Both the position numbers and the translations under genes were made by a program. Source: a bacterium (GTDB lineage: Bacteria; Patescibacteriota; Minisyncoccia; Phycocordibacterales; Phycocordibacteraceae). Taken from it: a stretch of DNA of 64,000 bases. The stretch spans positions 3,027-67,026 of the forward strand of contig JAJYCP010000002.1 of assembly GCA_021778295.1 (NCBI GenBank). The letters are read 5' to 3'. The notes beneath the pieces were generated by a model. The model worked only from the letters and a program-made list of their open reading frames with translations, was not told the DNA's origin and ran no database searches. Of the stretch, positions 1,827-16,186 are shown in pieces. Positions within the stretch are counted from its first letter, which is position 1. Each line of letters opens with the position of its first letter.

Positions 1827-1903
1827 TGGTGCTGGCGGCAGGACTTGCACCTGCGACCTTAGGTTTATGAATCCTATGCTCTAACTGCCTGAGCTACGCC
1901 AGC
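1827..1903 (-). tRNA. tRNA with CAT anticodon (elongator Met or Ile2-type), CCA encoded
   Basis: The reverse complement gives GCTGGCG-TA-GCTC-AGGCAGTTA-GAGC-A-TAGGA-TTCATAA-ACCTA-AGGTC-GCAGG-TGCAAGT-CCTGC-CGCCAGC-A-CCA. The acceptor stem is fully paired, so it is not an initiator. Oddities are a T-loop reading TGC instead of TTC and an A31/A39 mismatch. Confidence 0.75.
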
Positions 1904-3779: not shown

Positions 3780-5288
3780 TCAGGCGAGACCGGGAAAATA
3801 ATCAGTCTTGATGGAGAAGCGAGAGACGCCGAGCGCGAGGAGCATGCGTTTTGTGCCCGACACCATGCCCGGCGGCCCGGAAAGATAAAAGAGACGTTCA
3901 CGATAATCGGGGATCTCGCGCGTAACGAGCGCCGCATCGATTGCCCCGGCATGCGCACCGGGCAGAAGAGGGGTTTCAGCTGTGAGCGCGTAGACGGTGC
4001 GCAAGCCCTCCCGCGCCGCCTGCGCGAAAACGTCCTGATATGCCACTTCGGGGGCGGTACGGCTCGCATAGAGCAATACCGCATCGCGCGATTCCCCGGA
4101 AGAAGAAAGATGCCGCGCCATGCTTGCAAACGGCGTTATTCCCACGCCGCCCGCAATAAATGCCAGTTTCTTCTTTTTGTCTTTCGGCAGAGTGAATTCT
4201 CCGGCAAGCGAGGAGGCGTGAATAATCCCTCCCCGCGGGAGGGCGCCGAGCGCGCGCTTGAACGCGCTTGGCGCTTCGTAGAAACGGACGCCGAGACGTA
4301 CGTTCTCGTCATGAGGCGCTGAGGCGATCGTGAAATAACGGCGATTGCCGCGGCTGTCGAACGGAACCTTTGCGAGCGTCCATTCCAGATACTGTCCGGG
4401 AGCGAAATCCAAACGGCGATCGGGCCGAAAGACAAATTCATAAATGCCGCGCGCAAGCTTGTGGCGCTCAATGAGCGTGAGCGTGTAACGCCTCTTCGGA
4501 CTCACTATATACGAGAACGCATTCCCGACGAGAAGCCCGAGCTCCGGCGAAAAATAAAATGAGCCCACATGGGCGGCGGGTGCGAAGAGCACGCCGACCA
4601 GTGCGCCGTAGACGATACGGTATCGCCGCGTCGGCGGCATGGTTAAAGGCTCGGTCAGCATCACAAACGCAAGGAAGAAAAATGCGGAGTGCAGGAGCGT
4701 TCCCTCAATTGCGATGAGAGGATTGAGCGACGTGAACGCGATGGTACCGAGCGCCGCGGCGCCAAAAGCGAGCACGAGATCGAAGCGACGCAGTTTGTAC
4801 ACGACGAGCACGCCGCCGAGGATGACGAGCGCCAAAAGCACGCTGTTCCCGCCGATCCACCAGGTTGCGGGAACTCCGAAGGCGAATGCCGAGAACACGG
4901 CGGCAAACGCCGCCGGGTTAAAGATGTGTTTCTTCTCAATCGAGAGAAGATACTTCGACGCCATCGCGACCGCGGCGATGGCTGCGAAAGCGGCAACACC
5001 GCCGGTACCGGTAATCGCAAGAGGTGAAAAGATGAGCGCGAGGATAAGCGCCGTAATGATGGCGGACTCGACATTGGTCGCCGCACCGAAAAATCGCGCA
5101 AGAATTTCATTGCTGATCCATGCCGCCGCAAGCAGCACACCAGTCGCATAAAGCAGGACAAGCGGCGCATACGGCAGCACACCGAGCGCGCCCAAAAGGA
5201 CTGCGGCGGCGAGAAGCGTGAGAAGGTAGTAGAGCACCAGCCGATACATCGTGGTGCGATCGATAAACGCTTTGAAGACCGCGATCAT
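3780..5288 (-). CDS. membrane oxidoreductase: RnfD/NqrB-like polytopic domain fused to an FNR-like FAD/NAD(P)-binding domain
   Basis: 502 aa. The N-terminal ~230 aa are multi-TM with a HIFNPAAF motif as in the NQR2/RnfD family. The C-terminal part has RRYFTIAS (FAD RxYS/T), GGVGITP (NAD(P) GGxGxxP) and SGPPGM. ATGA start/stop overlap with the upstream apbE. Confidence 0.7.
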   Translation of the reverse strand: MIAVFKAFIDRTTMYRLVLYYLLTLLAAAVLLGALGVLPYAPLVLLYATGVLLAAAWISNEILARFFGAATNVESAIITALILALIFSPLAITGTGGVAAFAAIAAVAMASKYLLSIEKKHIFNPAAFAAVFSAFAFGVPATWWIGGNSVLLALVILGGVLVVYKLRRFDLVLAFGAAALGTIAFTSLNPLIAIEGTLLHSAFFFLAFVMLTEPLTMPPTRRYRIVYGALVGVLFAPAAHVGSFYFSPELGLLVGNAFSYIVSPKRRYTLTLIERHKLARGIYEFVFRPDRRLDFAPGQYLEWTLAKVPFDSRGNRRYFTIASAPHDENVRLGVRFYEAPSAFKRALGALPRGGIIHASSLAGEFTLPKDKKKKLAFIAGGVGITPFASMARHLSSSGESRDAVLLYASRTAPEVAYQDVFAQAAREGLRTVYALTAETPLLPGAHAGAIDAALVTREIPDYRERLFYLSGPPGMVSGTKRMLLALGVSRFSIKTDYFPGLA

Positions 5289-7479: not shown

Positions 7480-7809
7480 ATGTTCGGCTTTTCACTCGGC
7501 CCCCAAAGCATACCCGTCACCGAAGCGTATGAACGTCTCGGTGCTGAAGGCCACGTACTGCTTGACGTGCGCACGCGAGAGGAAGTTCGCGCGGAAGGCA
7601 TTGCCGGCGCGCTGAATATACCGCTCGACCGTCTTGAAACCGAAGCGCCGCGTCTTACGCAATACGGTTCCATCCACGTCATCTGTCGTTCCGGCGGCCG
7701 CAGTTCCATGGCTACCGATCTCCTGCACGGTCTCGGCTTGAAGCAGGCGACAAATGTCACCGGCGGCATCATCGCGTGGCAGAAGGCCGGTCTTCCGGTC
7801 ACTCATTAA
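7480..7809 (+). CDS. single-domain rhodanese (sulfurtransferase)
   Basis: 109 aa. LLDVRTREE...IPL... and the active-site loop HVICRSGGRS. Confidence 0.85.
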   Translation: MFGFSLGPQSIPVTEAYERLGAEGHVLLDVRTREEVRAEGIAGALNIPLDRLETEAPRLTQYGSIHVICRSGGRSSMATDLLHGLGLKQATNVTGGIIAWQKAGLPVTH

Positions 7810-15029: not shown

Positions 15030-15071
15030 CTGAAAACGCAAAAACCACTTTCGTGGTTTTTGCGTTTTCAG
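15030..15071 (-). terminator. 19-bp perfect hairpin (CTGAAAACGCAAAAACCAC-TTTC-GTGGTTTTTGCGTTTTCAG) downstream of the intron-containing tRNA
   Basis: Read directly, with U-rich arms. A smaller hairpin (GGACACC-TTTCAG-GGTGTCC, 15109..15128) lies directly after the tRNA 3' end. Confidence 0.55.
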
Positions 15072-15134: not shown

Positions 15135-15546
15135 GTTGCGGGGGCCGGAATCGAACCGGCGTCTGGAGGTTCTTTTACACCTGCTGTTTCCAACTGGAAT
15201 GGACTATACCACAATCCCATAAGGACTCTCCCATTATAGTCTCTGAACCTTTCCAGTCTCACTTTCCAGAGTTGCTTTTGCTCGGACTATACGTCCTCGC
15301 TTCCGCACTCTGTTGTTCGCCTCCCCCATAAGAATGGGGGGAACCCCCGATAAATGAAACTAGACTTGGCTGCTGATTGCCGAATCTTCTTGTTTTTTAG
15401 GCGTTCGCGCTCATCCTTTCGGATCACGCTGTAGCACAAGAAGCTCTAACGGTATTCCAGCAATTTAGAGAGTTTTTCCACTATCCGTTACCGGATAGGG
15501 TCACGTTTTCACATGAGCCTCCCGAGGTACCTCTCCTCTACCCCGC
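15135..15546 (-). tRNA. initiator tRNA-fMet (anticodon CAT) interrupted by a group I intron; exons 15512..15546 and 15135..15170
   Basis: The joined exons give A-GCGGGG-TA-GAGG-AGAGGTA-CCTC-G-GGAGG-CTCAT|AA-CCTCC-AGAC-GCCGG-TTCGATT-CCGGC-CCCCGCA-A, a full cloverleaf. The 3' half CCGGCCCCCGCAA equals the E. coli tRNA-fMet 3' end. The 1:72 mismatch (A x A) and A11:U24 are initiator hallmarks. CCA is not encoded. Confidence 0.8.
15171..15511 (-). ncRNA. group I intron (IC3-like, no ORF) in the anticodon loop of tRNA-fMet
   Basis: The 5' exon ends in U (CAU|) and intron nt 9-11 GUG can pair with CAU including a G.U pair (P1). Other elements: P2 CUAUCCG-GUAA-CGGAUAG (GNRA loop); P3 CUCUCU/GGAGAG; J3/4 AAA; P4 UUGCUG/CAGCAG followed by AGCCAAG; GGAAUACCGUUAG (compare GGGAAACCUAAG of IC3 introns); CAGAGACUAUA...UAUAGUC (P7). 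The last intron nucleotide is G. Confidence 0.75.
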
Positions 15547-15601
15547 TACGGGCAAGTATAGGAAATTCCCGATGACAACGCAACTGTACCAAAAAACGCT
15601 C

Positions 15602-16186
15602 CTAAATGATTTTGAATTCGCGGAAGACGGACTCGTAGCGGGCGAGGGTGCGGCGGGCGAGCGTTTCGGAAAGAGCGAAAGCGGAACCTTCATGCGCTAT
15701 CTGGTTGCGCACTTTGTGCGCCTCCCACGCATCCTGGAGCGTATTGAAATCTGCCGGTTCGACTGCTTTAAGCTTCTCACCGACGCCCTCGCCCGCATAT
15801 CCCTGTTCGGTGAGCATGTCGTCAAGCATGATATCGGCCTCGATAATCGCCTCGCGCCACGCGCTTGCATTTGCGCCGTTCCCGAGCGATTCGATGTGCA
15901 GCCAGCGCCGGTTCATGCCGCCCTCCGCCTCCGGTGCAAGAAGCAGCGTGCCGTACTGTTCCTCTTCGCGCTCACGAAGCTCGAAAAGACGTATCATCGC
16001 ATACACGATGACGAAAAGTCCTATGACCGAGAGCGCGTAGCCGACGATGATGATCCAGAGCCAAAGGTGTGTGAGAAAAGTCTGAAACACCGAATAGTCC
16101 GCCGACCCATGCGCGCCATAGAAAAGATCGTAGATGAGGCGGAAAAAATACTCGACGTTTATCTGCGTAGCGGGAGTGGTGGACAT
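15602..16186 (-). CDS. hypothetical membrane protein with a DUF4145-like C-terminal helical domain
   Basis: 194 aa with two N-terminal TMs (LWLWIIIVGYALSVIGLFVIVYAMI). The C-terminal part WEAHKVRNQIAHEG resembles the RN..AH motif of DUF4145. Confidence 0.5.
   Translation of the reverse strand: MSTTPATQINVEYFFRLIYDLFYGAHGSADYSVFQTFLTHLWLWIIIVGYALSVIGLFVIVYAMIRLFELREREEEQYGTLLLAPEAEGGMNRRWLHIESLGNGANASAWREAIIEADIMLDDMLTEQGYAGEGVGEKLKAVEPADFNTLQDAWEAHKVRNQIAHEGSAFALSETLARRTLARYESVFREFKII

Follow-up and report, generated by a model that had tools for sequence, protein, structure and literature searches.

A probable initiator tRNA gene split by a group I intron at position 36/37 in a Kaiserbacteria-like member of the Patescibacteria

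Group I introns in the tRNA genes of Patescibacteria are known from work published in 2020 and 2026. Nakagawa et al. 2026 (mSystems, PMC13011429) described 22 intron-bearing tRNA genes in 95 complete Patescibacteria genomes, with insertions at 35/36 of tRNA-Asn and tRNA-Asp, at 36/37 of tRNA-Thr, at 33/34 of tRNA-Met(CAU) in Microgenomatia, and in tRNA-Phe and tRNA-Tyr. The 35/36 introns self-spliced in vitro, and no Patescibacteria tRNA intron was IC. A survey preprint (Williams 2020, 10.1101/2020.01.27.920355), in the portion drawn on here, gives Leu 34/35, Arg 36/37, fMet 33/34 and Ile2 36/37 as classical types, adds 17 more, and puts split tRNA genes at 0.49 per genome for metagenomic assemblies of unnamed phyla. 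The subject of the present analysis is a split tRNA(CAU) gene in a 64-kb stretch of contig JAJYCP010000002.1 (the window, meaning the whole stretch analysed; all coordinates are window positions, and the gene lies on the minus strand). This is very probably an initiator tRNA-fMet gene of a Kaiserbacteria-like Patescibacteria host, in which a 341-nt group I ribozyme intron without a homing endonuclease gene separates U36 from A37. The intron is one member of a very common family, and an initial annotation of the locus overstated the matter in calling it notable in this lineage, since tRNA introns of Patescibacteria had already been published.

In several respects the window intron resembles those of PMC13011429: they come from the same phylum, are short and mostly without a homing endonuclease gene, lie within the anticodon loop, have U ahead of the 5' splice site and G as the last base, and reside in genes that standard tRNA finders miss or miscall. 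By core sequence the closest counterparts of its family, within the examined portion of the tables of that paper, are the tRNA-Asn 35/36 introns. Insertion after CAU (36/37), a position used by Arg introns also, is shared with the Azoarcus tRNA-Ile2(CAU) intron (Ile2.5Ug, IC3), as are a GUG guide with a U.G wobble, an exon/guide pair already likened to that of Azoarcus in the initial annotation, and GNRA loops in L2 and L9; the shortest family members (188-220 nt) share its compact P1-P9 layout as well. Unlike in Azoarcus, the host tRNA here is an initiator and not Ile2, and P5a/b and P6 extensions are present. The fMet.2Ug introns of cyanobacteria and other bacteria (IC3, 33/34) also interrupt an initiator tRNA, the supply of which then needs splicing, but they belong to a different intron lineage and insertion here, at 36/37, is three bases downstream. 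Some cyanobacterial fMet introns carry a homing endonuclease, and the window intron has none. The cyanobacterial tRNA-fMet precedent invoked in the initial annotation sits at 33/34 and not at 36/37, according to the parts of the sources used here (PMC13011429; Williams 2020 preprint). Site 33/34 is occupied in relatives of the window host by a second intron (class C below), in 21 of 119 species among the matches listed.

No tRNA-fMet intron at 36/37 appears in Table 1 or Table S3 of PMC13011429, and no sequence of the 36/37 fMet family in the examined portion of its tables. The Williams 2020 survey, to go by the portion drawn on, may already list fMet 36/37 (as 'fMet.5Ug'). Within the parts of the literature examined, introns of initiator tRNAs are located at 33/34 and nowhere else, and the combination of initiator tRNA, 36/37 insertion and a P5/P6-extended architecture is not named, nor is alternation with a 33/34 intron.

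The split gene and the structure of its intron

With introns allowed, ARAGORN joins two segments of the minus strand into a 72-nt tRNA-Met(cat) with a 341-nt intron after CAU, and the artificially spliced sequence gives the same cloverleaf. The Rfam group I model RF00028 (Intron_gpI) matches 15180..15524 (minus) over its entire length (model 1-253 of 253) at 58.6 bits against a gathering threshold of 50, with an E value of 2.7e-12 for the whole window. Gene structure and group I family membership are established directly by these results, in agreement with the central claim of the initial annotation that a group I intron interrupts a tRNA(CAU) gene immediately 3' of the anticodon. The intron length it gave also stands, while its exons (15512..15546 and 15135..15170) were one base off at both junctions. 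The parts of the gene are:

15547..15513, minus: exon 1, tRNA A1 to U36 (sequence AGCGGGGTAGAGGAGAGGTACCTCGGGAGGCTCAT; from ARAGORN in intron mode and the spliced sequence), holding the acceptor 5' strand, the D arm with A11:U24, the anticodon-stem 5' strand GGAGG and the loop bases C-U-C-A-U
15512..15172, minus: group I intron, 341 nt, between U36 and A37 (RF00028, ARAGORN, alignments A1 and A2), with G as first base and the terminal (omega) G at 15172 as last
15171..15136, minus: exon 2, A37 to discriminator A73 (AACCTCC...CCCCGCAA; complete sequence AACCTCCAGACGCCGGTTCGATTCCGGCCCCCGCAA), holding AA, CCUCC, a 4-nt variable region AGAC, the T arm GCCGG-UUCGAUU-CCGGC and the acceptor 3' strand CCCCGCA

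Exon 2 is followed directly by CAA, and CCA is not encoded. As anticipated, standard tools pass over the gene: in the window it is reported neither by default ARAGORN nor by the Rfam tRNA model. Because default tRNA finders miss such genes, genomes of the group appear to lack an initiator tRNA. No second group I intron (RF00028) and no second tRNA-fMet (default ARAGORN) was found in the 64-kb window. The intron was rightly described as free of coding sequence, as it holds only mechanical open reading frames of at most 50 aa and none for a homing endonuclease.

Intron secondary structure was derived from the Rfam alignment, from RNAalifold on 28 close copies (alignment A1), and from an own structure on 31 diverse copies aligned with MAFFT (alignment A2). 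The elements, in 5' to 3' order of their first strand, are:

15499..15518, minus: P1, in which exon bases G31 and U33-U36 and intron base G1 (15518, 15516..15512) pair with the guide CGUGAC-C (15505..15499)
15481..15498, minus: P2, a 7-bp hairpin with the GNRA loop GUAA (7 of 7 pairs compensatory, 99.1% of cells paired)
15468..15472, minus: P3 5' strand CUCUC, pairing with GGGAG at 15228..15232 (RNAalifold and Rfam)
15371..15462, minus: P4-P5 domain, in which P4 pairs UGCUGG (15462..15457) with UCAGCA (15376..15371), then CCAAG
15452..15450 with 15382..15380, minus: P5 (RNAalifold on A1)
15443..15386, minus: P5a/b extension of about 58 nt, with a GAAA loop and the A-rich bulge UAAAAA
15248..15369, minus: P6, with CC/GG closing pairs and a stem of 15364..15360 with 15256..15252 (5 of 5 stem pairs covary)
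about 15359..15259, minus: branched P6 extension of about 95 nt (from the fold and a few compensatory changes)
15241..15235, minus: P7 5' strand GACUAUA of the guanosine-binding helix, then the P3 3' strand GGGAG at 15232..15228
15213..15227, minus: P8 hairpin (5 of 6 pairs compensatory)
15202..15208, minus: P7 3' strand UAUAGUC (6 of 7 pairs never vary)
15180..15197, minus: P9 hairpin with a GAAA loop (6 of 6 pairs compensatory in the family, one AxA mismatch here)

Strong covariation of these helices is observed directly. Across the 31 diverse members 96.5% of cells in the 71 proposed pairs form standard pairs, versus 38-45% in slid controls, in which the 3' partners were moved one to three columns. 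Changes on both sides occur in 43 of the 71 pairs, the covariation score is 0.436 versus 0.07-0.085 for the slid versions, and none of 500 shuffles reaches any observed measure. Within the 28 close copies compensatory change is found by RNAalifold in 25 of 77 pairs. P2, P5a, P6, P8 and P9 covary at nearly every pair (P5a at 8 of 8, the distal pairs at 6 of 8, in A2). P1 covaries at two (9/26, UA to CG; 13/22, AU, GC or GU; A2); it has a U36.G wobble at the 5' splice site, where all 31 family members have UG, GUG opposite CAU, and a conserved C32xC mismatch. P3 (5 bp) is perfectly complementary, agrees in sequence with the Rfam consensus and is paired in 100% of cells, its 3' strand being fixed by the search pattern. 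The P7 5' strand has perfect 7-bp complementarity to UAUAGUC at 15208..15202, is invariant in the 28 genome copies and agrees with the R/S elements conserved in the Rfam consensus; its seventh pair is A-U in the window copy and unpaired in 12 of the 31 family members. J3/4 is AAA, and after P9 comes GUGUAAAAG, with the terminal G at 15172 as its last base. The P6 extension is limited to the window, conspecifics and the closest intron-bearing relatives (in A1, the window, L001, L003, L017 and L092 only).

All the sequence features picked out in the initial annotation are present, among them the U before the 5' splice site and the GUG guide opposite CAU (both in the Rfam alignment), the P2 GNRA loop, J3/4, the P7 strands and the terminal G. 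The P3 helix exists with five pairs, CUCUC/GGGAG, in place of the CUCUCU/GGAGAG first drawn. P4 likewise exists, paired as listed above where the initial annotation had UUGCUG/CAGCAG.

Subgroup was approached by comparing a sequence profile of the family with introns labelled in the examined portion of the PMC13011429 tables, a comparison of primary sequence only and thus indicative. The scores were:

IA label, Patescibacteria tRNA-Asn 35/36 introns: 62 and 51 bits
IB2 label, Actinomycetota tRNA-Lys intron: 33 bits, almost full length
IC3 label, several introns: 15-23 bits
IA1 label, Ile2 36/37 intron: 17 bits

The IC3-like assignment made initially is not accepted as established, because of the P5a/b and roughly 95-nt P6 extensions and the better profile matches to IA- and IB2-labelled introns. 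Within the set of introns labelled in those tables, similarity to the IC3-labelled ones is low. The shortest family members have no P5 extension and show the compact layout of IC3 tRNA introns. With the Actinomycetota tRNA-Lys(UUU) 34/35 introns (IB2, PMC13011429 Table S5), in the portion of the tables examined, the family shares a P4-P5 junction and extension signature (GCUGGAAnACCnUUAGAGC ... GAUUnGGCAAUCAGCAG), and those introns align to family profile positions 29-238; they differ in phylum, host tRNA, insertion site, and the P1-P2 and P9 regions.

One further feature lies immediately upstream of the gene:

15555..15583, minus: probable promoter, with TTGCGT at 15583..15578, a 17-nt spacer and TATACT at 15560..15555

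As read from the sequence, the TATACT hexamer ends 7 nt upstream of tRNA base 1, and its position and conservation in relatives make this the probable promoter of the split gene. A consensus promoter and terminator scan made no call fitting the split gene; the TTGCGT/TATACT site went uncalled because its first hexamer matches at only three of six bases. In 78 of 113 distinct upstream regions of relatives a TANNNT hexamer begins at -15..-11, and a TTGC-N17-TATAAT-like promoter stands immediately 5' of tRNA-fMet in most relatives (upstream regions of L007-L125). The second hexamer ends 6-10 nt before tRNA base 1 in relatives, so that the leader would be only 0-3 nt and the precursor probably has almost no 5' leader. 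The scan made no terminator call at a downstream inverted repeat around 15032..15067. A 194-aa open reading frame (15602..16186, minus) separates gatA from the tRNA gene; it has no Pfam match, is kept as a called gene in all same-species contigs, and shows no link to the intron.

Identity of the spliced tRNA

The initiator hallmarks claimed for the tRNA are present in the ARAGORN drawing of the spliced molecule, which has A1xA72, A11:U24 (D stem GAGG/CCUC) and the discriminator A73. The acceptor stem GCGGGG/CCCCGC is that of E. coli tRNA-fMet. In a search of 5,426 E. coli genomes the best match was the tRNA gene between argG and rimP (78.4% over 71 nt), which is metY, an initiator tRNA gene. 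The median number of matching places per genome is four, equal to the count of initiator genes in E. coli. An initiator-type identity of the spliced tRNA is well supported by these sequence features.

The host tRNAs of the 36/37 intron family have AxA, CxA, GxA and in some cases U:A at 1:72. Among them are fully canonical initiators, for example one joining CGCGGGG...TCGGGCTCAT to AACCCGA...CCCCGCAACCA, with C1xA72 and GGG/CCC in the anticodon stem. In other Patescibacteria lineages, many initiator tRNAs (36/37 hosts such as L126, L133, L135, L158 and L163) have the T loop UGCAAUU, with G55, and the same tRNAs have a D loop AGUAGUA without the usual GG. A changed contact between D loop and T loop in the tertiary structure of these G55 initiators is suggested by the two sequences.

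The other CAU tRNA in the window, at 1827..1903 (minus), is not an initiator, as had been concluded at first sight; it has G1:C72 and C11:G24. This tRNA has the T loop UGCAAGU, with G at position 55 where U or pseudouridine is almost universal, and its anticodon stem is mismatched at the bottom, A31xA39. The G55 T loop and the A31xA39 mismatch recur in its orthologues at six related genomes (L010, L012, L051, L063, L070 and L101), and among 166 distinct tRNAs from the fetched loci and the window the UGCAAGU loop is confined to this tRNA species.

Distribution and descent of the intron family

The exact GatA sequence of the window is found on contigs of the metagenome-assembled genomes GCA_021834265.1 and GCA_027422565.1 and on four ENA metagenome contigs, and the intron is present in all four same-species contigs that reach the tRNA. 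A genome scan with the exact 3' exon, taking one genome per species, gave at least 119 loci. Nearly all loci with a lineage name are labelled as Patescibacteria (Paceibacterota/Parcubacteria, Kaiserbacteria, Yonathbacteria, Wolfebacteria, Nomurabacteria), and one as Bacillota; gatA adjoins the tRNA gene in at least 71. The window GatA is 94% identical to that of two metagenome-assembled genomes and 77-80% identical to that of named Kaiserbacteria. Among the 119 matches listed, the loci are of three classes:

Class A, uninterrupted tRNA-fMet: 69 species, and 2 cut at the contig end
Class B, window-type intron at 36/37: 27 species
Class C, a different intron of 208-302 nt at 33/34: 21 species

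In the 69 intron-less relatives the 35 nt of exon 1 run straight into exon 2. Class B introns are typically 243-254 nt, and relatives score 52-60 bits with RF00028. Class C (L016, L020, L021, L028, L029, L031, L036, L037, L053, L057, L064, L067, L072, L086, L089, L093, L094, L099, L119, L123 and L125) reads GGCU/UGAAC...GGUAAG/CAUAACC, the slashes marking the exon-intron boundaries, and is also group I, at 51-70 bits with RF00028 in the four copies scored. With introns allowed, ARAGORN mistakes these genes for tRNA-Ser(UGA). The 3' end of class C resembles published IC3 introns at 33/34 of CAU tRNAs (of the form AGUCCAGACCACAAAC...GUAGUGGUAAG), in contrast to the absence of IC introns from the Patescibacteria set of PMC13011429, as far as the part of that source used here goes. 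No locus among the 119 matches listed carries both introns. The class C locus L125 (Yonathbacteria) also has a tRNA-Asp(GUC) gene at 4090..4384 with a 220-nt group I intron at 35/36, of the type described by Nakagawa et al. 2026 (PMC13011429).

A metagenome scan with an invariant 21-nt intron core returned at least 120 loci, 93 of them with a resolvable host. Conservation of the family at one site is a direct observation: among the matches listed, all 93 hosts are initiator-type tRNA(CAU), with 57 distinct mature sequences, and in 93 of 93 the intron follows CAU, its 5' splice site preceded by U and its last base a G before AACC (junctions were re-derived where ARAGORN had shifted them). These members are 188-459 nt among the matches listed, and no long one has a stop-free stretch of more than 81 aa; none has an endonuclease-sized open reading frame. 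Matches of the invariant core to viral contigs numbered zero, so there is no sign of a phage reservoir.

Some metagenome members depart from the common form. L172 and L222 (A2) have C at the near-universal U33, giving the loop CCCAUAA, and the guide compensates with GUGGCC for GUGACC. A structured insertion of about 45 nt lies in the P1 loop of L207, L245, L223 and L179, the last of which (459 nt) also has large P5 and P6 insertions.

On a neighbour-joining tree of GatA the intron-less, 36/37 and 33/34 states are interspersed. The two nearest relatives of the window by GatA among the matches listed are L079 (94.3%), which is intron-less, and L092 (94.1%), of class B with the P6 extension; L079 has the same gene order as the window and an uninterrupted tRNA-fMet at 7599..7669. 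Intron divergence correlates with GatA divergence in both classes (Mantel r is 0.68 in each, at p about 5e-4 in class B and about 0.03 in class C). The simplest reading is that the intron has long been inherited mostly vertically, with precise loss or allele replacement on many occasions and no endonuclease involved.

Among the matches listed, the genome scan yielded a second hit in just two bins. SRP178908_co2_72 (L090, L109) has two intron-less copies. WY4.bin53 (JAKAKH01) has L020 with a 33/34 intron and the intron-less L079, and was rejected as a two-copy genome: each copy has its own gatA beside it, the two far apart on the GatA tree, and the bin is therefore contaminated. The complete Kaiserbacteria chromosome OY969413.1 has a single hit among the matches listed, and it is intron-split. 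Single copies support a requirement for splicing in the group, short of proof for this genome.

A bolder reading of these data, which is possible but is held only tentatively, is that a very widespread and previously undescribed group I lineage without homing endonuclease genes is dedicated to the 36/37 site of the initiator tRNA across Patescibacteria, never together with the unrelated 33/34 intron of the same single-copy gene. If so, the patchy presence even at 94% GatA identity would imply that the intron is often lost precisely, or its allele replaced, with no endonuclease at work; recombination across the invariant exons is one conceivable route.

Splicing, competing explanations and significance

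The proposed course of splicing is as follows. Transcription from the gene's own promoter would give a precursor of about 415 nt. The internal guide GUGAC-C would pair with the last exon bases G-CUCAU to form P1, with the U.G wobble at the splice site, and free guanosine bound in P7 would attack after U36. The terminal G of the intron would then occupy the same site, and the freed 3'-OH of U36 would attack after the terminal G. Joining of the exons would allow the anticodon stem GGAGG/CCUCC to form, and CCA, since it is not encoded, would be added after splicing.

Several points count against a self-splicing initiator gene on which the cell relies. Catalysis and accurate exon ligation are attributed to the intron from its family membership. 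P3 and P7 supply no covariation evidence, because both are invariant and one strand of each was fixed by the search pattern, and a P10 pairing, looked for by eye only, gave no convincing candidate. The tRNA has two of the three G:C pairs of E. coli-type initiators at 29-31:39-41, with G30:C40 and G31:C39 present but A29:U41 in place of the third. This variant is common to many related hosts and other related hosts have all three pairs; the missing G29:C41 is a lineage trait, and natural initiators with a variant 29:41 pair are known. The genome is visible over 64 kb, so an intact second initiator gene may lie elsewhere, and the genome-scan figures are lower bounds. Dependence of translation initiation on splicing in this genome is accordingly put as plausible, on the supposition that this is the sole initiator tRNA gene.

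Splicing in the cell might need a host protein, such as a chaperone or a tRNA-binding enzyme, or special conditions, the precursor then being a regulated bottleneck. Some group I introns do require proteins in vivo, and besides the want of a convincing P10, P1 competes with the anticodon stem for G30, G31 and A29, and the window copy combines the P9 AxA mismatch with a large P6 extension specific to its lineage. The catalytic core is nevertheless kept in full, with three GNRA/GAAA loops and an A-rich bulge typical of self-stabilising peripheral contacts; Patescibacteria protein sets are very reduced, and other Patescibacteria tRNA introns self-spliced in vitro (PMC13011429). This explanation is considered unlikely, though it is the strongest of the competitors. 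A decaying, non-splicing pseudogene, with an intact initiator gene elsewhere doing the work, would suit the limited view of the genome and the intron-less state of the closest GatA relative at the same locus, which shows that intron-less alleles circulate. Against it, intron-less relatives that look functional have identical exons, the core of the intron does not vary, compensatory changes maintain pairing in its helices, the intron is kept in four independent same-species assemblies, intron-bearing relatives (including the one complete chromosome) have a single copy, and the promoter-like site lies at the same upstream distance as in relatives. Such decay is very improbable.

It is just as improbable that the spliced product is an elongator tRNA-Met or a lysidine-modified tRNA-Ile2. 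In insertion site and GUG guide the intron matches the Azoarcus-type tRNA-Ile2 intron, and the anticodon stem lacks G29:C41, but the tRNA shares the 1x72 mismatch, A11:U24, GCGGGG/CCCCGC and A73 with E. coli tRNA-fMet, its best match in E. coli is metY with as many matching places per genome as there are initiator genes, the hosts of the family include fully canonical initiators, and a separate CAU tRNA with G1:C72 is present at 1827..1903. A transfer-messenger RNA (tmRNA) or other structured RNA filling the interval of about 410 nt, the alternative foreseen in the initial annotation, is refuted and its probability negligible: the tmRNA model matches weakly, at 14.8 bits against a gathering threshold of 47 and over only 18 nt of T arm, ARAGORN finds no tmRNA, the group I model is matched over its whole length, and the spliced exons fold into a complete cloverleaf.

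The published picture of Patescibacteria tRNA introns is unchanged by the split initiator gene described here; what is added is the combination of host tRNA and insertion site, with figures for its prevalence. If the dedicated-lineage reading were true, about 40% of sampled Kaiserbacteria-like species would have as their sole initiator tRNA one that must self-splice, its supply could be tied to levels of guanosine nucleotides or Mg, and the published statement that Patescibacteria tRNA introns are never IC would be qualified. Two unrelated introns occupy one 7-nt loop of one essential gene, patchily among close relatives and with no endonuclease encoded, which offers a clean natural system for intron loss, gain and replacement. 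Should the gene in the window be the only initiator gene of its genome, all protein synthesis in this minimal-genome cell would depend on an RNA-catalysed, guanosine-using reaction, and the intron would be a possible control point.

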